Shown here one piece after another: positions 2,324 through 64,000 of a stretch of DNA of 64,000 nt. This DNA comes from Eledone cirrhosa (taxonomy: Eukaryota): positions 246,016,001 to 246,080,000 of the forward strand of contig OZ024740.1 of NCBI GenBank assembly GCA_964016885.1, written 5' to 3'. The position numbers were made by a program, and so were the translations under genes. The notes under the pieces are model-generated. The model made no database searches. It was given only the letters and a program-made list of their open reading frames with translations, and was not told the origin of the DNA. Numbering within the stretch: position 1 is the first letter of the stretch; every line of letters starts with the position of its first letter.

Positions 2324-3201
2324 TAGTGGGTCCGGGTATGATTTTACATTCATTTAAATTATTGATGTATTGATTTATTGATATTTTTTATCTGATTGTC
2401 CCGAATCTTCTATTATCGATTTTTTATCGTATGGTTGATTTTAGACTTGTTCTATGTGTGACGGTATTTTAACGATAGTTATAGCTCTGATTCATCTGAA
2501 TTATTGAGCCCTCTGCCGCTCATTTCGAATTTTGTTTATCGTGAACTCGTGCGCCGATTTTTCGATACTCGATCATTCTAATATTTTTAGCTCTGGACAT
2601 AGCTATCCACCAGTTAATTTTATTGCTCATTTTTTGTCGATTCTATTGAATGATGAATAGCTCCTGTTTTATTTTAACATGTCTATTGAGCACTTTTATT
2701 CGATATGTGTATTTCCACATTTCCTCGAATAGTTTTCGCGGATGTAGAGGTTATCTCCCTTGCCGGATTCCATGTGCGTATTTTGCTTGTAGTTAGCCTC
2801 TTATCCGCTAGGACGAAGCTCGTTGAAGAAGTAAACTTCCAGTCCGCTTGCTCTAGAAGTCTTATATATTTATATGTGAGCTGATAGAGTACAGTCTAAG
2901 GATTTACAGAAACCCAAGAAGCTAGATTTAACACCTTTCTAGTGGGTCCGGGTATGATTTTACATTCATTTAAATTATTGATGTATTGATTTATTGATAT
3001 TTTTTATCTGATTGTCCCGAATCTTCTATTATCGATTTTTTATCGTATGGTTGATTTTAGACTTGTTCTATGTGTGACGGTATTTTAACGATAGTTATAG
3101 CTCTGATTCATCTGAATTATTGAGCCCTCTGCCGCTCATTTCGAATTTTGTTTATCGTGAACTCGTGCGCCGATTTTTCGATACTCGATCATTCTAATAT
3201 T
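2324..3201 (+). repeat. Non-coding element with identical 262-bp direct repeats (period 616 bp), resembling a PLE partial tandem
   Basis: 2324-2585 equals 2940-3201 with no visible difference, and the element ends in (TA)n. The terminal ~75 bp recur inverted at 60128-60202, also within (TA)n. Confidence 0.85.
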
Positions 3202-3337
3202 ATATATATATATATAAGCAAAAGGGATATTCAATTTGTTGGTAATTCAACAAATATAAATGTTTATAACTGATTCAGAGTGCTCGACAAGTTTTCTGGA
3301 GTATAATATTCAATGATAATAAATAAATGGAAACTAT

Positions 3338-3428
3338 ATTTATAAAACCATATTTATTCTATTATATATATTTCAAGGGTACCAAAACTTTGGTACGCTT
3401 TCATCAGATAAAATACAAAGTTTGTTTT
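3338..3428 (-). ncRNA. Hammerhead ribozyme (inverted pLTR copy)
   Basis: Reverse complement of the 5641-5735 motif; TCATCAG at 3401-3407. Confidence 0.8.
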
Positions 3429-3509
3429 ATACATTTTGACATAACCAAGAAAAAATACCTTAACGGTTCAGGTTTTCCTTGGATAGTGAAGGGATAAGAG
3501 AAGAAAATC

Positions 3510-4497
3510 TAAATTACTGATCATCCTAGAAATATTAAAAACACTATTGTCAATAGCGTCCAACAACGGATTTCACGCATCTCCGCTAATAAAAATATTT
3601 TTGATGATAAGGCAGAATATTACAATGAAGCTTTACATAGAGCAGGATACTAGAATAAAATTAAATACATAGATAACAATAACATGACAATTCATCCTAG
3701 AATTAACTATAATAATAATAAACAATTTAACTTAAACACTAAACCCACCAAAAATCTAGAACTAGAAATATTATTTGGTACTCTTTCCCATTCTCATTAA
3801 GCGTTAAAACACCTTTAGCAAATCTATTCTTTAAAGCACTAGATAAATGTTTTACTAAAGCCCACAGATACCACTCTATTTTTAACAGACACACTATAAA
3901 ACTATCCTACTCTACTACTACGAACATAGCACAAAATATAAATAGAATTAAAAATAGAAACTTAAATTTAAACTCTAACCAAACTAACCAAAATAACAAT
4001 AATAATATTTCTAACAACAATATTCAGAATAATAGTACCGTTCCGAACAACAACAACTCCAGAAAATGTAACTGTAGAATTAAATCAAACTGCCCTTTAC
4101 AAAATAATTGCTTAGACAAAAACGTATAATTTATAAATGCACAGTTAAAACTAGAGACAAAGTATTTAACTATATTGGTGCCACTTCTACAAAATTCAAA
4201 GAACGCTGGTATAACCATAAACACACATTTAATAGATCCGATAAAAAATCTTCCACTTCACTTTCACATTTAATTTGGAACTTAAAAGACAACAATATAG
4301 ACTATTCAATATCTTGGGGAACAATATCGAAAGCACCTGCATACCGAAATATGGCTCTCTCAAGATTCTGTAACTTGTGTATCGGGGAAATTTTTTATAT
4401 AATTAATTGTCAAAACTCTATTAATCTTAAAACAGAATTATTTTCTTCTTGCAGACATCGTCAAAATTCCACTTTCAGAAATATTTTAAATTTATGA
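3510..4497 (+). pseudogene. PLE RT thumb, Cys-rich linker and GIY-YIG endonuclease (disrupted)
   Basis: HPRNIKNTIVNSVQQRISRIS..YYNEAL; CNCRIKSNCPLQNNC; IYKCTV..YIGATSTKFKERWYNH..CNLCIGE..SSCRH. Confidence 0.9.
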
Positions 4498-5640
4498 TAT
4501 TCATTACACTTGACTATATCTTATACATCTTCAAAATGATCCTATTTTCTTTAAAAATTTAAATTTAAATTTAAATGTAAATTCTTTTAAATGATCTTCC
4601 TTCTTAATTTTTTAATATTTCTACTATTTTTACCTTTTGACATTAATTTAAAAAAATATTTTTTACTTCTGACATTATTATTTTCCTAACGATACCCCTC
4701 TAAATATATTTGTTTAGATGTAGATTGATAATCTCTAATTGACATTCTGAAAATTTATCTTCTTTACGATAGTTCTTCGAAATGCACATTACGTTTTTCC
4801 TCTCCTTTTGATCTTCAAACTTTCACGCATCTTTCGACTAAAATAATTAATCTCACACAAAATAATATATAATTTTCTCTATTTATTTTCTGAGTAAATC
4901 ATTCATAAAATTTAACGGTTAACAAACAGGATTGGAGTTATCTTTCTCTTTTCAATCGTGCAAACATAAACATGATATAATATAATATAATATAATATGT
5001 ACGATAAAATATATAACTTCGCTAAATTAACAATATTCTGAAAACATTTTCAATGCTGGAACAAAATATTCGAATCTGCAAATTGTTCTTAAACCACCTG
5101 TTTTTTTTTAATGTAAAATGCAAAATCAACGTCCTTTGTAACTCATATTAGAAATGTAAACAACTAATAATTGTAAATTATTTCTATTTCTATAATACTT
5201 ATACATGCACAATTATTAATCTATATAGATATTTATATACTTATAACCTATTGTAATGTAATAAGATAAACTATACTTACAACCATAATTCTTCATATAA
5301 TCTAATTGATTATATATACAATATTATAACTCATAATATAGCTAAATAAATTTAAATTCTGGAATCATATTCCACCATTCCCCCAAATTGTTAATTCCTT
5401 TTAAATTAACGTAAATACAAGCTCTTCTTCCTTTTCTTCTTCCTACTCATACATACATATATCCTAATTATTTAAATTCTGCATAGCGTCTAAAATAACG
5501 TTTTTTTTCAGCCCTATACTTCAACCTCATTTGCATACCCATCTTAATAATTTGAAATATCTGACTTTTCTTCTCTTATCCCTTCACTATCCAAGGAAAA
5601 ATTGAACCGTTAAGGTATCTTTTTCTTGGTTATGTCAAAA

Positions 5641-5735
5641 TTTATAAAACAAACTTTGTATTTTATCTGATGAAAGCGTACCAAAGTTTTGGTACCCTTG
5701 AAATATATATAATAGAATAAATTTGGTTTTATAAA
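5641..5735 (+). ncRNA. Type I minimal hammerhead ribozyme in PLE pLTR
   Basis: Stem I TATTTTAT/ATAGAATA, extended by TTTATAAAAC/GTTTTATAAA. CTGATGA at 5667-5673, stem II AAG.GTACCAAA/TTTGGTAC.CTT, GAAA at 5700-5703, palindromic TATATA, and NUH = ATA (5709-5711). Confidence 0.85.
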
Positions 5736-5758
5736 TATATTTTCCATTTATTTAATAT

Positions 5759-5814
<56 letters not shown>

Positions 5815-6729: not shown

Positions 6730-6799
6730 ATCTTTATTCAATGAGGTTACGTTTCCGAGGCAATCCAATTGCATCATTATTTACTAATTGGTGCGTTGC

Positions 6800-6887
6800 A
6801 TACACAACCCCGTTCAGTCAATATATTTACCTTAAGTATGATATATCATACTTAAGGTAAACATATTGACTGAACGGGGTTGTGTAT
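6800..6887. repeat. 88-bp near-perfect palindrome (44-bp arms, 1 mismatch, no spacer)
   Basis: atacacaaccccgttcagtcaatatatttaccttaagtatgata|tatcatacttaaggtaaacatattgactgaacggggttgtgtat. Confidence 0.95.
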
Positions 6888-6910
6888 ACATACATACATA
6901 CATACATACA

Positions 6911-7104: not shown

Positions 7105-7147
7105 GTCACTGAGGAGGTCAGAGAATGTGTGACGAAAGAGCTTTGCC
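7105..7147 (+). ncRNA. Minimal hammerhead-like motif
   Basis: CTGAGGA (7109-7115)-G-GTCA..TGAC-GAAA (7134-7137)-GAGC-TT-TG. Stem I is weak. Same layout as the 19453 motif. Confidence 0.55.
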
Positions 7148-7363
7148 AATATATAAACAACCAACCGTAAGTGTATTGAACCAACCAACCGTAAGTGTAT
7201 AATAAATTGAAGTGAAAAATACACACTGAAGCAGAACGTAAGTTCAGTGTGTATTTTTCCCCGTTATTTTATTTTATTTCTTATCTTTATTTTATTATAT
7301 TTCAGCCTCGCTTTCAATTGTAATAGCTTTTGTTTTTAAATTCATATCTTACGTCCATATTAA

Positions 7364-7603: not shown

Positions 7604-7758
7604 TATCATAAAACATGTCTATAGAATCACCAGATAAAATATATACCATTTCCTCTCCCAATTAGCATAATTAACCATATAAAAAAGCGAATAGACCAGG
7701 CTATAAGAATAAGGCTTCTATGAAGAAATCTCCAACAAATAACCGAAACTAGCCCTTC
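7604..7758 (-). repeat. Second copy of the terminal repeat at 8370-8525
   Basis: Reverse complement of 8370-8525 with a few substitutions; ends in (TA)n. Confidence 0.85.
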
Positions 7759-7877
7759 ACGTCGGCGGCGACGGAATATTTATCGAATATTTCGACAGCG
7801 TAATCGCCCAGATATACAGTCAATTAAACAGAATTAGGTGTAAAATAAACTAGGAGAAAAGAGAATACATTTATTTA

Positions 7878-7951
7878 CCTCGACCATGGTTTCGTCCGCA
7901 TTTTGAGATTTCCAATAACTTCGGAAACTCGAGCACCGGACTCTTCAGGAG
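7878..7951 (-). ncRNA. Type I minimal hammerhead ribozyme
   Basis: Minus strand: CTC-CTGAAGA-GTCCG..(GAG.TTTCC..GGAAA.CTC)..CGGAC-GAAA-CCATGG-TC-GAG, followed by AATAAA. Confidence 0.75.
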
Positions 7952-8154
7952 TTTGCTCAAATCTCGACAATAAATTTTCCAAAGTGATCGCGCTAAGAAT
8001 ACATTCAAAAATGGGTAAGAATCGTGACGTAGCAGCGGTCAGGTTGGAAAGAGTGTGGTTAGTTGCTTACGGCTGGTGGCTTTTTGCTAGAAAGCACAGC
8101 ACAATACAGCCAAATTTGTATCTCAACCCAACAGGAGATTATTACATATAAAGG

Positions 8155-8590
<436 letters not shown>

Positions 8591-8635
8591 ATGTATATAT
8601 GTATATATATATATATATATATGTAAACCTTTATA

Positions 8636-8708
<73 letters not shown>

Positions 8709-14619: not shown

Positions 14620-15386
14620 CAAAAGCCTTTGACAGAGTGCCTCGCGTTATAATCTGGTGGGCTCTTGGAAAACTAGGAGTAGATGAATGGCTTGTGAAAG
14701 CTGTACGAGCAGTCAGCAAAGTTAGGGTTAACAATGACTATAGCGAGGAATTTAGCATACAAGTCGGTGTCCACCAGGGCTCTGTTCTTAGCCCTCTCCT
14801 GTTCATTATAGTATTGCAGCCAAAAACAGAGGAGTTTAAGACCGGATGCCCATGGGAACTCCTGTATGCAGGTGACCTCGCACTTATAGTTGAATCTATG
14901 GTAGATCTAGAGAACAAATTCCAAACATGGAAGCAGGGACTAGAAAGAAGGGGTCTCAAAGTCAACCTGATAAAGACTAACGTCCTTGTAAGTAGACGAA
15001 AAAACAGAACCATTCTCTGCCCCAAATGCAAACAATGGGTACACAAGAGATGTAGTGGGATCTCAGGAAGCTTAACTAAGAATGTAGGCTTCACATGTAG
15101 CAGTTGCGCTGGGACAGCAATCAGCCACAGGAAACAAGCACCACCAAATTCTGGGAGGGCTCTGTAAAATCAGTAGACAGCTTTTGTTACCTAGGTGACC
15201 GAATTAGCAGCGGAGGTGGGTGTTCGGAAAGTACAATAACTAGGGTAAGAACGGGATGGAAGAAGTTCAGGGAACTATGCGTCTGCTAGCTCAAAATGAA
15301 AGGCAGACTGTATGATGTGTGTATATGAACAGCAATGTTACATGGTAGTGAGACCTGGGCGATGTCTGTAGAAGACTTGTGCAGAT
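14620..15386 (+). pseudogene. RTE family A fragment with multiple small deletions
   Basis: [28 protein letters not shown]; close to 23450-25792 but missing several blocks. Confidence 0.9.
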
Positions 15387-18370
15387 TATGGTGCTAGGAT
15401 GTAAATTACCCTAAAATTTGTTTTAACCTATCTCAGCTAGGGGGAAGGTTTAGCAGGGTGAGCCTAATTCAGTAGGTGATGGGCAGTGTCTTGGTAAAAG
15501 TCTGATGGTTGGTTGATAGCGTCATTAGACGCTGCACTTTGGCCTACCTATTGCAGATAGACTAACTGGAGGTGCGATGCAGATAACTGCGGGGATAGAA
15601 TTTTATTCCGGTTCTGGAGACCGCTTGTAGAACGAGTGTTGTAGTCTGTGGCCGCAATTGATGACTGTTTCAGCCCGACTATTAATGAGTTCCTGGGGTG
15701 AGTTCAATATATAGTATGTTTCCATTAGGCGGAGCTGGCAATTTTTCCTAAAATTATATGGGGTTGCTTGATCAACTATTTCCCATTGTGTGGTGTAGCT
15801 AATGTTAGATTCAGTTAATTGTGTAATATAATTTGCGAGGGAGGTAGAGAATCTGAGCTTCTTATTTCTAAAGGAGTGGAGATGTGATCTAAATCTAGTC
15901 TTGAACTCATTAGAAGTGGAGCCTATGTATGACCTATGCTATTATAACTCGTCACAGTGCATTTGTAGATTACGTTTCTAATCAAGCAGTGGTCCTGGAG
16001 CGGACAGTTGTTTGGGTTTCGGCAATTGCAATTTCTAGTGTGGTGAGGTCCACTGCTATCATTACTACTATCATTACCACTATCACCATTGTCGTCATTG
16101 TTGCCGTTGGCTTTATTACAGATATAGTTTTGCGACATGGTATTATTTCTATTGTTCCTATTATGGCCCCTTCTACAGCTGTTGTTATCGCTGCCATGAT
16201 TCTATCCTGGTCACTAGTTCCACTATTAATGTTGCGGCTAGTCTCTATAATGTTGATATTATTGCTATTACTATCATTATTATCCTGGTTTCCATTATTG
16301 CTATTATGGCTACCGGTGTTGTTATGGTTATTAAGGTGGCCAGACACTCTAATGTTGGCATTACAAGATGGCTTTATTCCAGTGAGCTTTCTGTGGTTAC
16401 TAAGTGCTATGAGATTGGCTAAGTTAGGTGTAGTAGAGTAAGAGATTTTGACATTACTCTTGTTGAGGATCTTGTGGTACCTATGGTTAGGTGGGAAATT
16501 CATCTCTAAGGTGTTGAAGAAGATTCTGGGTATGTTTGAGGCTATACTCCTAGAATAGAGGGGAAGGAACCATATGACATTACGCTGGCGTTTCCGTGTT
16601 GCCGTTGGGTTGGTGAGGGCGTTTAAGCCCTGGTGGGTGTTTCTACTGTGGCATTTGGACTGCTGCCTGTTGTGCACTCTGTTCCTATTAGTCCCATGTG
16701 TTCACCTACCCACTGAGGGGCCTACCCGGGTTACCCTATGCTTGCTGGTAGGTGTTGGTAAGATACCGTCTCCATTGTTAAGCCTGTATGCGGGGGAATT
16801 TTTCTAGTAAGCTATTTCTAGTTACATTTTATAAATTAGATTGGCACCGGTTTAGGGATCTACCTGGCCTACCACCATTGCTGTTGTGATGCCGGCCTAG
16901 GCCAGTCGCAATGCTGGTTCGACTCGTATATTTCCCATTAACAAGCCTGCTGCCAAGGTGGTTATTGGTGCGCCACGCCATTACACTGGTCCTATGGGAG
17001 GTGGACCTAGTAGAACCAGTGTCCTGGATGTAAGAAATCCTACTGCTATACCCTGATTCAGTCAGTGCTTTGTTGTAGTAGTCAACAGTTTGGTCGAAAA
17101 GGTCCTCGTTGGCCAATAGCCTCGAGATTCTGTGCGAGATGTTACTAACTATAGAGTTAAGCGTAGAGTTGGGGTAGTTAGATGCTTTGTTAATGTAAGA
17201 CAAGACCTCACCTGGCTTGTGGTACGGTCTGTATAGGCTAATATTTAACTCCAATGTTACATCTAGGAAGTTAACTACCTTATGGTTATGGTCTATTGTA
17301 ACTAAGAGGCCATACGTTTTAAAGAACTTAGGGATATGCTTATTGAGGTTCTCTATCCTACGGGGGTTGTGATTCCTTACAGTAAATAGGGCATCGTCCC
17401 TATATGCACCTCCTTGTAGCGTGGGGATCTCTTCCTTGAGCTTATGCAGGAGGTATATTCCGACCAGATCGGTTACCTGTGTAGAGTCACTCGACCCCAT
17501 TGTAATATCGAAATTATCAGGACGGTTGACTCGGGTCCAATATGAGCCTTCGAAGTGTATGATGGTTCGACTAGCTGCTAGTACTATGTCTAATTCTTTT
17601 TTAGTTATAATAGTATTAGACCTAGCTAAGTTGAGGGCCTTATTTAGGAGTACAGGGGGAGATAGAGGCATAGTAATTATCTATGTCGAACTGAATAAAT
17701 TTTAAAGAACACTTATCTTGTATGTTTGTGAACCATTTGATGACCTGGTCAGTATTATTCCAAAGAAGGACCGTAGCCTTACTGTTTAGCACAGGTATTA
17801 TCCTAACGAGGATCACTTTGCTAATGCTGCCTATATCAGAGGTGGAGGGGCATATTAATCTAACAGAAGAGTTTTCATTAAAGTTACATTTGTGATCCTT
17901 AAGAAACATACTATATATTGAACTCACCCCAGGAACTCATTAATAGTCGGGCTGAAACAGTTATCAATTGCGGCCACAGACTACAACACTCGTTCTACAA
18001 GTGGTCTCCAGAACCGGAATAACATTCTATCCCCGCAGCTATCTGCATCGCACCTCCAGTTAGTCTATCTGCAATAGGTAGGCCAAAGTGCAGTGTCTAA
18101 TGATGCTATCAACCAACCATCAGACTTTTACCAAGGCACTGCCCATCACCTACTGAGTTAGGCTCACCCTGCTAAACCTTCCCCCCAGCTGGGATAGGTT
18201 AACACAAATTTTAGGATAATTTACATCCTAGCACCATACAGTTACCTTAATCTTTAAGTGGGTCTTTCCACTTAAAGATTAAGGTGGTAGAAAAGGCAGG
18301 AACTACCATAAAATCCCTGATCAGCAAAAGATACTCTTTTAAGAAAACCCACTGTACTAATAGGAAATGT
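15387..18370 (-). mobile_element. Penelope-like element with RT, GIY-YIG and inverted pseudo-LTR
   Basis: Minus-strand FLKDHK, FIQFDIDNYY, FDITMGS.D, YRDDAL, VNFLDVTL, VIWF.P.YS and CNCRNPNNCPLQDHC. The inverted repeat is 15387-15722 versus 17903-18238. A perfect 18-bp hairpin lies at 18244-18285. Confidence 0.92.
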
Positions 18371-38620: not shown

Positions 38621-39152
38621 TTAAGTTAGTGTCAGTGGATTGGCAGTATCGGTACAACGTCAGACACCATGCTTTGCAGTTATATCAAACCCTTCTTGCG
38701 GGATTGGAAACTAATAGTCGTATTGAAGATAACTATACTATAATGTTCCAGCTCTGCATATTGTATAGAGCACTCAGTTACCTTTATCTGTACTATGGAA
38801 TCATTTAACACTACTTATACAAATATGTGTGTGTGTATATGTATGTATGGTCCTGTAACTCCTGATAGAATCGTAGGGGCGCTGTATTGACATACAGTGT
38901 TTCTTGGACATTTTAAGCCTGGGGCGGAGCCCAACCCTCTCCAGGCCTGAGTACAGCAAATTTCTTCCAGAGAGAGGAAGAATCGACCCCAGTAATAGAC
39001 TGGTGCTTTATTTTATCGACCACAAAAGGATGGAAAGCAAAGTTGACCTCGGGGAGATTTGAATTCAGAGAGCAGAGAGCTGGAACGAATAACGTAAAGC
39101 ATTCTAACTGACTTTCTAATGGCTCTGCCAATTCACCGTTTATATATATATA

Positions 39153-56512: not shown

Positions 56513-56520
56513 GTATATAT

Positions 56521-56752
56521 AGGAACGAGTAGGACCCCGACGGCTGAGCTCAAGCCGTTTCGACGGCTAATTCTGGACTAAATGAACATTTTTATTGATA
56601 AAAATTTTCATTTAGTCCAGAATTAGCCGCCGAAACGGCTTGAGCTCAGCCGTCGGGGTCCTACTCGTTCCTATTACCCACTCTACTACCCTAAGTATTG
56701 AGTACTTTGGTGCGTTAAGGTCCATCTGGTTCCTTACCACATTTCCTTCGTT
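56521..56752 (+). mobile_element. Miniature fold-back copy of the PLE terminus of 61447-64000
   Basis: 56521-56591 is inverted relative to 56601-56672; 56601-56752 matches the pLTR end; (TA)n on both sides. Confidence 0.88.
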
Positions 56753-56757
56753 ATATG

Positions 56758-61446: not shown

Positions 61447-61447
<1 letters not shown>

Positions 61448-64000
61448 AAACGAAGGAAATGTGGTAAGGAACCAGGTGGACCATAACGCACCAAAGTACT
61501 CAATACTTGAGGTAGTAGAGTGGGTAATAGGAACCAGTAAGACCCCGACAGCTGAGCTCAAGCCGTTTCGACGGCTAATTCTGGACTAAATGAAAATTTA
61601 TCCTGGTATTTAAATAGCCGATCTTCTCAAGGGGTAATTCCATATATGGTCAAAGTGATTGTCAAAAATCAGTAGTAATTCTGTGGTTGCAAATTAGTAG
61701 GGGAGATGGTGGCTAAACCTGCCAGTAGGAGAAAGAGGGGAGGGGGTGGAATAGACACAATCAAGCGTTTTTAGTGCCAGCTACAGCTGGGCATGAGGTC
61801 AAAGAAGATACAGGGGAGGGGGAGGAAGTCGGAACGGTAGGTAGAACAATGGGGGGTAGAAATATAGGAAAGAAAAAATACTGAGAGTGAAGAAAAGCAA
61901 ATAAGTGTAAAGAAAAAAGTAAAGTAAATTAAATTCTACGATCTAGGTCTCTAGCTATTGGTAGGCTAGAATAAATAAATAAATAAAGAAAGAAGTAAAG
62001 AAAGAAATAAAGAAATAACGAAATAAGTAAAAGAACTAGGTGGGACGGAATAGGCGAGGACCCTTTTAAGAGGTATAAGTACGTAAATGATACGGTGACG
62101 GGTCAACAAAAGGGGCCAAAATACTAAAGAGACTACCACGAAATAAACAATAAAGGTTTCCATCCCGGGCACAATTCCAGCAACCACCCAGTGCAGCAAA
62201 GTGAACTAATACGAGATAATAATTCTGAGTCCCGAGAAAAATATATACTAATGGCCCCTTTTGTTGACCCGTCACCGTATCATTTACGTACTTATACCTA
62301 AATAGCAGTGGAGAACCGACCAGGAGGTGTAACTGCCCGGATAGATCTATTTGCCCACTCGACAATAGATGCAGAGACCGTAATGTGATCTACCAGTGCA
62401 ACGTGAGGACGGATACCTCCAACAAAGCCTATATAGGACTTACCGCATGTGACTTCAAGACTCGGCTATACCAACATAGACATACCTTCCGAAACCCGGC
62501 CCGGCGTCATGCCACTACACTTTCGGGCCACATATGGGACCTCAAGGACAACAACATCACCTATGATCTCACTTGGAGATTACTGGCCAGAGCCAATTCT
62601 TACACGGGAGGACGCCGTCCGTGCAATTTATGCTCGGAGGAAACTTTACAAATGCTGTTTTCGACGGACCAACTCCTAAACAAGAAAGATGAACTGGTTA
62701 CTGCATGTAAACATAGATTGCGTAGGACTTACCTCGCCCTCAAACCCCATAATGACCCGGGGGGGTAGACTAGGGCTATAACACCCCACTTGCCGATTTT
62801 GCAATGGGTAACCCCTGCTTGCCAAGGGAGACGTAAGATCTTCTTTGTATTCTTTTATCGCTTCCTTTATTTCCTTCCTTCCCCCCTCTCTCCTTAGTCC
62901 TTCTACCCCAGCTCTTCTCCTTTGTCGGCGTCTTTTCTCGCCCACCCGAGGCTGCCCTTTGGCCCCTTGTAGCCTTAGTACCCCCACCCCCTCCCCTAGT
63001 CTAGGATAGATTTGGCGGACTCCGCCCTTTATAGCAGTTGGTTTAGACCCCGGATACTTGTCCCCTTTTTCCGACCGCTCCCACTATTCTCTGTGCCCCC
63101 TATATTTCTTAGTGGCACTTATGCCTTATTTTTTCGTTTCAGTATTTCTTTCTTCGCTTTTCTTTTGGGCGGGGTGGATTCTGAATTTATTCTTCCGTAT
63201 TCTACCTTTACTTCGTACGAACTTTCATGTAGCTTGTTTTAGATCTTTTAGAGTTAGCATTAGTATATATTTTTCTCGGGACTCAGAATTATTATCTCGT
63301 ATTAGTTCACTTTGCTGCACTGGGTGGTTGCTGGAATTGTGCCCGGGATGGAAACCTTTATTGTTTATTTCGTGGTATTCTCTTTAGTATTTTGGCCCCT
63401 TTTGTTGACCCGTCACCGTATCATTTACGTACTTATACCTCTTAAAAGGGTCCTCGCCTATTCCGTCCCACCTAGTTCTTTTACTTATTTCGTTATTTCT
63501 TTCTTTACTTCTTTCTTTCTTTATTTATTTATTTTAGACTAACAATAGCCTGAGACCTAGGTCGTAGAATTTAATTTACTTTACTTTTTTCTTTACACTC
63601 ATTTGTTTTTCTTTACACTTATTTGCTTTTCTTCACTCTCAGTATTTTTTCTTTCCTATATATTTCTACCCCCCATTGTTCTACCTACCGTTCCGACTTC
63701 CTCCCCCTCCCCCTCCTCTGTATCTTCTTTGACCTCATGCCCAGCTGTAGCTGGCACTACAAACGCTTTATTGGGGCTACTCCACCCCTCCCCTCTTTCT
63801 CCTACTGGCAGGTTTAGCCACCATCTCCCCTACTAATTTGCAACCACAGAATTACTACTGATTTTTGACAATCACTTTGACCATATATGGAATTACCCCT
63901 TGAGAAGATCGGCTATTTAAATACCAGGATAAATTTTCATTTAGTCCAGAATTAGCCATCGAAACGGCTTGAGCTCAGCTGTCGGGGTCTTACTGGTTCC
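61447..64000 (+). mobile_element. Penelope-like element 3' part with long inverted pseudo-LTR (runs off the window)
   Basis: 61447-62253 is the inverted copy of 63258 onward, with a GIY-YIG ORF in between. Confidence 0.92.
62301..62768 (+). CDS. PLE Cys-rich linker plus GIY-YIG endonuclease (5'-truncated, open)
   Basis: RCNCPDRSICPLDNRC..VIYQCNV..YIGLTACDFKTRLYQH..TTLSGHIW..CNLCSEE..LNKKDELVTACKH. Confidence 0.88.
   Translation, partial: NSSGEPTRRCNCPDRSICPLDNRCRDRNVIYQCNVRTDTSNKAYIGLTACDFKTRLYQHRHTFRNPARRHATTLSGHIWDLKDNNITYDLTWRLLARANSYTGGRRPCNLCSEETLQMLFSTDQLLNKKDELVTACKHRLRRTYLALKPHNDPGG

Follow-up and report, generated by a model that had tools for sequence, protein, structure and literature searches.

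Twin hairpins lie behind the two fixed ends of Hydra-clade Penelope-like elements and may place paired starts of reverse transcription

Penelope-like elements (PLEs) of the Hydra clade carry the same small bulged hairpin twice (H1 and H2) between their hammerhead and their start codon, and the ends of their genomic copies fall just 5′ of one hairpin or the other. What we observe directly is the pair of hairpins with their covariation and spacing, the places where element ends fall, and a rule by which the two ends of an insertion are one of each kind. A hairpin behind each fixed end, together with one end of each kind, suggests that the hairpins direct the starts of a paired enzyme. We consider it probable that they are RNA binding sites that place two starts of reverse transcription for a protein dimer, in what amounts to programmed twin priming. 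Our analysis covers a 64,000-nt stretch of DNA (the window), whose features are listed in Table 1, together with searches of a 3.0-Gb animal genome and of foreign loci encoding related proteins.

A preliminary description of the window proposed a bipartite motif (blocks 1 and 2) shared by the terminal repeats of three families, A, B and C, and the strings it quoted are all present where it placed them. Global alignment bears out the likeness of A and B (z 5.6, matched by 0 of 1000 shuffles), leaves that of A and C marginal (z 2.2, p 0.021, with hand-picked borders) and gives no significant likeness of B and C (z 1.4, p 0.083). The pattern of block 2 has 9532 matches in the genome, against 4 for a reversed control pattern, and its variants change in matched pairs, consistent with one hairpin. 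Block 1 was rejected as part of the motif, since 7/7 loci from sister families of A lack it and 2 of 93 foreign loci have it. Two hairpins had been drawn around TTGAGC; instead, GCUC pairs with GAGC after UU, so that block 2 is a single bulged hairpin with the consensus GCUC-Y(stem-loop)R-UH-GAGC-ACU, in which Y and R pair, the stem-loop is variable and the two-base bulge is led by U. The motif is thus real but not bipartite, and it is likely no ribozyme. A coding explanation was also rejected: in C, in D (a fourth family, outside the preliminary description) and in the foreign loci the motif precedes the start codon, and neither A nor B matches a Hydra protein.

Table 1. Positions of the hairpins, hammerheads and element copies in the window.
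Feature	Positions	Strand	Basis
Family A, one non-coding tandem monomer of 616 nt and a partial copy; ends at S2 before (TA)n	2324..3201	+	genome matches, no Hydra protein match
A hairpin H1, first copy	2484..2512	+	pattern and covariance model
A hairpin H1, second copy	3100..3128	+	covariance model
A hairpin H2, stem halves 2590-2600 and 2679-2694 around an inner domain of ~90 nt	2590..2694	+	compensatory changes
A hammerhead-like relic that retains GAAA, stem III and GUC but has a disrupted 5′ core	2881..2948	+	
Family D insertion; inverted arm to S2; direct arm with endonuclease remnant and hammerhead (5667), to S1 (~5765)	3218..5765	.	
D hairpin H1; its inverted arm ends at S2 (3218)	3279..3302	-	
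Family B long arm, ending at S1 just ahead of H1	7604..8138	-	
B canonical type I hammerhead	7878..7951	-	
B hairpin H2, variant with U-A outer pair	8118..8138	-	
B hairpin H1	8526..8564	+; also 8298-8336 on -	
Minimal fold-back C insertion, S1 left, S2 right; H1 at 56680-56706 (+)	56519..56754	.	
C insertion, Hydra clade, endonuclease remnant 62268-62768; both ends S2	61447..64000	.	
C hairpin H1 in inverted arm; + copy just past the window end (L091)	61495..61521	-	
C predicted type I hammerhead, U3-A8 core (the C motif of the preliminary description); predicted cut after 63983	63895..63988	+	

C is an autonomous element with a 3557-nt unit and a single ORF of 720 aa, in which a reverse transcriptase (RT) is followed by a C-terminal GIY-YIG domain. 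Homologs of its protein share 38-53% identity, and structure comparison places its fold closest to TERT and other RTs; Pfam gives no match for five proteins or fragments, and a search of viral contigs gives no relatives. Read by eye against the hallmarks given in PMC8557442, the protein has RWR/RWI (RWK-type), DKT and a CxCx5C linker and has no CCHH. C inserts into (TA)n, and it shares with the Hydra clade as described in PMC8557442 these protein hallmarks, the (TA)n targeting, the pseudo-LTRs and a tail that is often at one end only. It departs from that clade in the U3-A8 core of its hammerhead and in its 3.56-kb unit, as against a length of generally under 3 kb, which PMC8557442 treats as a tendency; the tails reported there are 30-40 nt long, whereas ours are about 60-110 nt. 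C is also very active, with 150 scored matches, many of which have open frames of 780 codons (window 63895-63988; L092). A search of RNA runs with C gives no run that contains it, a result with no bearing on expression.

A and B have no match to Hydra proteins, their longest ORF being 59 aa. The genome search with A gave 144 matches in 39 scored of 2058 candidates, mostly at 96-100% identity; its arrays have one fixed end position and variable 5′ ends, and reach 20 or more monomers. The monomer of B is roughly 640-660 nt long and has a canonical hammerhead. As non-coding tandem monomers derived from Penelope-like repeats, both resemble the non-LTR retrozymes of PMC7229834 and preprint 10.64898/2026.07.22.740005. 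An intact type I hammerhead, as expected in each retrozyme monomer, is present in B, and A, unlike those elements, is without an intact hammerhead core. The parts of these two sources available to us mention no hairpin or stem-loop signal. Both hairpins are retained in A and in B, which probably rely on mobilisation in trans.

The hairpin recurs beyond this genome, in Hydra-type elements from unrelated marine samples. From a foreign test set of 93 loci encoding related proteins, drawn from metagenome and genome contigs, we used the 38 with 150 nt before the start codon, 35 after removal of near-duplicates. At least one hairpin is present in 30 of these 35 loci and two in 21, compared with 0 on the reverse strand and 0 in the ORF interior, and 100 shuffles give a mean of 1.06 loci (maximum 6) with at least one hairpin and 0.01 (maximum 1) with two. 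For covariation we chose 70 hairpins by sequence anchors only, with no requirement for inner pairing. Inner pairs 1 to 3 are paired in 66/70, 51/66 and 39/46 hairpins, as against 48.9, 27.9 and 19.6 in shuffled controls, and thus the stem pairs of the block 2 hairpin covary. An alignment of 63 of the 70, which leaves out six mis-anchored rows and one long row, has 99% paired cells and 28 double changes, counts that ignore kinship among the sequences. Conservation covers about 14 nt of a single helix that has a two-base bulge. The inner length ranges from 6 to 24 nt, and to about 90 nt in A, with pairing maintained.

Using a covariance model built from the foreign loci alone, we found that the top five matches in the window are the H1 hairpins of D, A (twice) and C (twice). 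B's H1 and H2 are not among the matches when the window is scanned with the short covariance model. The H2 of A starts about 5 nt past the position where A copies end, and across the sister families of the A group its outer pair and first inner pair both show compensatory changes, although the inner pair is lost in one of six copies. Rfam has no match at the hairpin in the window or in 12 foreign loci, in a search whose sensitivity is limited, as it missed the hammerheads too. The published sea cucumber consensus Hydra-1_Ajap (PMC8557442) begins, by eye, with both hairpins, and Hydra-2_Ajap ends with one plus a tail. In another PLE clade of about four families, Neptune-like by our own reading, the hairpin is found in 0/22 parsed loci (30 fetched). 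A model scan of those 30 loci gives four matches, three of them inside neighbouring Hydra-type insertions, one of which has both hairpins ahead of its start codon; the fourth match is unassigned. We also noted a further autonomous Hydra-type family (L338:2741-3264) with both hairpins before the start codon and a long inner segment in H1, and a lone good hairpin match in the window (38751-38775, E 0.053) with no obvious element around it.

The hairpins hold a fixed place. Along the element the order is hammerhead, H1, linker, H2 and start codon, with a median spacing of 64 nt between H1 and H2 (55-72 nt in 23 of 24) and with 34-68 nt between H2 and the start codon. At -10 to -3, 54/70 hairpins have a TAT/ATA tract, compared with 13/70 on the 3′ side. 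Element ends lie 0-8 nt 5′ of H1 (site S1) or of H2 (site S2), where TA microhomology blurs the exact base, and the known optional tail is therefore H1 plus the linker. In 40 C copies selected by their ORF, 39 direct ends are at S1 or S2 and one falls short of S2 by 15 nt. Few ends in C are at other UA-rich tracts. All 27 ends scored in family A are at S2. For D, an H2 was predicted past the fixed end and is found in 7/9 pattern matches, followed by the start of a Hydra-type ORF.

Loose ends of C at (TA)n in public contigs, perhaps of the same species, fall at S2 in 290, 15 and 1 records (three runs) and at S1 in 62 and 7 records (two runs). The ends of foreign elements give a weaker picture. 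Nine of 24 foreign loci have mappable ends: four are clean, 3-4 nt before the hairpin, one is doubtful, one fits by eye only and three do not fit.

An inverted arm is present in 33/40 C copies and absent from the other seven. Among the full-length copies with an inverted arm (n=33), 32 have one end of each type and none has two ends of the same type. The first 16 inverted arms comprise eight S1/S2, seven S2/S1, none alike and one near-S2 (Fisher p 1.6e-4, on 15). For 17 further copies, whose 5′ part initially lay off the fetched DNA, we predicted mixed ends first, and 17/17 matched. A survey of all own-genome C loci (n=44, an overlapping and partly end-selected set) gives 38 mixed, one S2/S2 and five untyped; the B fold-backs (n=19, likewise overlapping and partly end-selected) include ten mixed and nine untyped, two of which may be S2/S2; and the D fold-backs (n=7) include four clean mixed, one probable and two untyped. 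No fold-back of family A appears in this survey; by coordinates, one fold-back A locus has S1 and S2 ends (C2:79582194-79585208).

The two arms of one C insertion differ by 0.6%, compared with 1.6% between insertions (20/22), indicating that the arms share a template. One C locus outside the 33-copy set (L095) is a true exception, with S2 at both ends and arms 0.5% apart. The window's large C copy, also outside that set, is S2/S2 with arms 2.1% apart and perhaps represents two events. The linker between H1 and H2 of B (window 8580-8640; L036) is a self-folding, TA-like tract of variable length where some B arms break. In another locus (L389) the inverted arm contains short tandem duplications of the hammerhead-H1 segment, which suggests repeated template jumps near the start sites.

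In the mechanism that we favour, a protein dimer would bind H1 and H2, one subunit per hairpin, and its endonucleases would nick both strands of the (TA)n target. Each DNA end would then pair with the UA-rich tract 5′ of one hairpin and prime a cDNA at S1 or S2, and the two cDNAs would be joined head to head into an inverted and a direct arm, exactly one of which has the tail (H1 plus linker). H2 is never contained in a cDNA started at S2, and neither hairpin in one started at S1, from which we infer that the start signal acts on the template or a precursor. Counting against the proposal, the two arms of an insertion overlap over kilobases, so that a single RNA would need to serve as template twice, with strand displacement.

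A biochemical parallel is described in PMC11167929, where the Poseidon PAc protein, a predicted dimer, starts in vitro at two internal RNA sites bounding the tail, extends both DNA strands and requires RNA 3′ of the first site. As here, two internal starts bound an optional tail. The PAc start sites, however, are inside the ORF, one of them in an AC-rich stem-loop, whereas ours are upstream of the ORF and the same hairpin follows each. The portion of PMC11167929 available to us reports neither a repeated hairpin nor a one-of-each rule.

The hairpins might instead act in DNA, where the endonuclease would recognise them in a tandem DNA intermediate and cut just 5′ of them, resolving the intermediate into the two ends. 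PMC8557442 attributes the tail to resolution by the endonuclease, and PMC11167929 refers to previous experiments where plasmid cutting by the Drosophila Penelope endonuclease depended on the tail. The strands of the hairpin themselves are poorly distinguished (3 G-U versus 5 A-C wobbles, folding energy 27 versus 32), so the caveat of the preliminary description that wobble does not agree on strand still applies, and it leaves room for DNA. Against this stands the wide range of inner lengths over which pairing is kept, which calls for a single strand; cutting a DNA intermediate also gives no obvious ground for ends of one kind each, and in PMC11167929 the borders of the tail are RT starts on an RNA template. 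We therefore regard action in DNA as unlikely.

Two RNAs of one source locus could also form an asymmetric complex in which priming takes place at S1 on one RNA and at S2 on the other, with the hairpins still serving as protein-binding sites. This would give arms overlapping over kilobases with no need for strand displacement, and the likeness of the arms fits one RNA or two RNAs from one locus equally well. Each RNA, however, has both hairpins, so an additional source of asymmetry would be needed, and the tight H1-H2 spacing fits two sites engaged on one molecule; a two-RNA complex thus seems improbable to us.

A further alternative holds that the hairpins direct RNA cleavage just upstream, as a new small ribozyme or with the help of protein, and that the RT starts at the new 3′ ends in a LINE-like manner. 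The ends are indeed sharp and at a fixed place before each hairpin, and A forms its long arrays with no intact hammerhead core. Against this, the conserved part is a single short helix with a two-base bulge, no Rfam ribozyme matches it in the window or the 12 foreign loci, and one end of each kind would demand that two differently cut RNAs be paired every time. Hammerheads moreover occur alongside the hairpin in B, C, D and many foreign loci, which also speaks against the earlier idea of a new ribozyme substituting for a missing hammerhead; the other function then proposed, an RT-recognition or priming structure, fits the evidence. Cleavage at the hairpins is, in our judgement, quite improbable. 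That they serve translation, export or an internal promoter, with ends set only by UA-rich tracts pairing with the (TA)n primer, would agree with their place in the 5′ untranslated region and with the UA tracts at the ends, but is very improbable given that non-coding A and B retain both hairpins, that other UA-rich tracts are little used in C and that one end of each kind goes unexplained.

In LINE-1 twin priming, both ends of the target DNA prime cDNA and a 5′ inversion results; the choice of the second site is opportunistic there, and the arms are non-overlapping. Programmed twin priming by the PLEs would likewise use two DNA ends, but a repeated structure would fix both of its sites, and its arms do overlap. 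Stringent LINE proteins recognise 3′ stem-loops shared with partner SINEs, single structures inside the copied region near the RNA 3′ end. The PLE hairpin is similarly short, kept in non-autonomous partners and, by analogy, likely bound by the RT protein, and it differs in its placement, since each copy is 3′ of the corresponding start site and so falls outside the cDNA primed there. For Penelope elements of Adineta vaga, PMC3846280 proposes self-priming on an antisense template; it addresses the same head-to-head inverted arms and notes a tail on one inverted repeat. Twin priming from sense RNA would explain this arrangement without an antisense template.

The conserved bulge offers a lead on how the RNA might be held. 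PMC6189040 describes the arginine sandwich of HIV-1 TAR and 7SK, and in 7SK two-base, pyrimidine-led bulges make such pockets. Judged by sequence alone, our hairpin resembles it in having a paired purine and a bulged U followed by G-C and A-U pairs, and differs in that the strand order is permuted and the A-U pair is swapped in 2/70 hairpins. The bulge is UU in 47 of the 70, UC in 14, UA in 8 and UG in one, its first U being part of the search anchor; the first inner pair is C-G or U-A in 63/70, and the A-U pair is kept save in GUGC variants. The N-terminal helix of the C protein contains conserved basic residues (K28, K34, R35 and R37), and a link from the hairpin through an arginine sandwich to these residues is offered as a lead only. 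In a bolder form, which we put forward tentatively and with some leaning against it, one RNA with two identical, arginine-sandwich-like hairpins would load the subunits of an RT-endonuclease dimer, each of which would prime from one end of a double-strand cut, and the RNA would be copied twice. Programmed twin priming of this kind, if true, would explain the tail and inverted repeats of all endonuclease-positive PLEs, and a twin-hairpin cassette of about 150 nt would suffice for the insertion in trans of any RNA upstream of it.

Penelope-like RTs are the sister group of telomerase, and so their grip on the template bears on the origin of RNA recognition by telomerase. For the origin of the PLE tail and of the head-to-head inverted repeats, published work has proposed resolution by the endonuclease (PMC8557442) and self-priming on an antisense template (PMC3846280), and has described internal starts without explaining them (PMC11167929). 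A short conserved RNA signal behind each start, together with a near-strict one-of-each rule, points to one mechanism that is testable with few mutations. The motif also marks the ends of Hydra-clade elements and their non-coding derivatives, and the smallest cassette needed for RNA-templated insertion may be defined by it. Published work already describes the tail at one end and the two start sites (PMC3846280, PMC8557442, PMC11167929). The literature searched, which covered few subscription papers, contains neither a hairpin repeated behind each site nor a count behind a one-of-each rule; the main text of PMC8557442 contains neither the word "hairpin" nor "stem-loop". The twin hairpin is thus a real cis element, apparently undescribed so far.

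The preliminary description also saw no hammerhead in A or C. In C the block in question has a three-way junction with a U3-A8 core as its minimum-energy fold, a core variant described in Schistosoma PLEs (PMC4209133), and is predicted to be a type I hammerhead; C is therefore not without one. The 5′ strand of its core is kept in 84/84 copies, 82 of them identical over 20 nt. Since this segment is the hammerhead itself, the proposed covariation between A/B and C (GGTTR/TAGCT versus TGGA.TTA/TAGTCCA) compared parts that are not homologous. The three-way alignment was likewise rejected for C, whose own hairpin sits further downstream of the hammerhead block. Its hammerhead has a loop 2 of about 40 nt and a stable, palindrome-capped stem III. 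For A the statement holds in the strict sense: the A group has a hammerhead-shaped junction in which GAAA, a covarying stem III and GUC are kept and the 5′ core is broken, differing among sister families. This relic may be either a dead, unneeded hammerhead or a non-standard catalytic variant. The earlier remark that B is contiguous with a hammerhead was correct, and that hammerhead is canonical (Table 1).

Other remains of related elements were seen along the way. A decayed Hydra-like element on the reverse strand of the window (15380-18300) has a long asparagine-rich insert before its endonuclease, and its 3′ part recurs upstream as a direct repeat; the hairpin model scan gives no match near it. 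Contigs with Hydra-clade PLEs in bacterial bins of sponge, coral or clam symbiont type (L253-L268) are most likely host contamination. Further fold-back pieces and hammerhead-like cores of other, unassigned small families lie in the window at 6797-6890, 7109-7150, 19453 and 41339.
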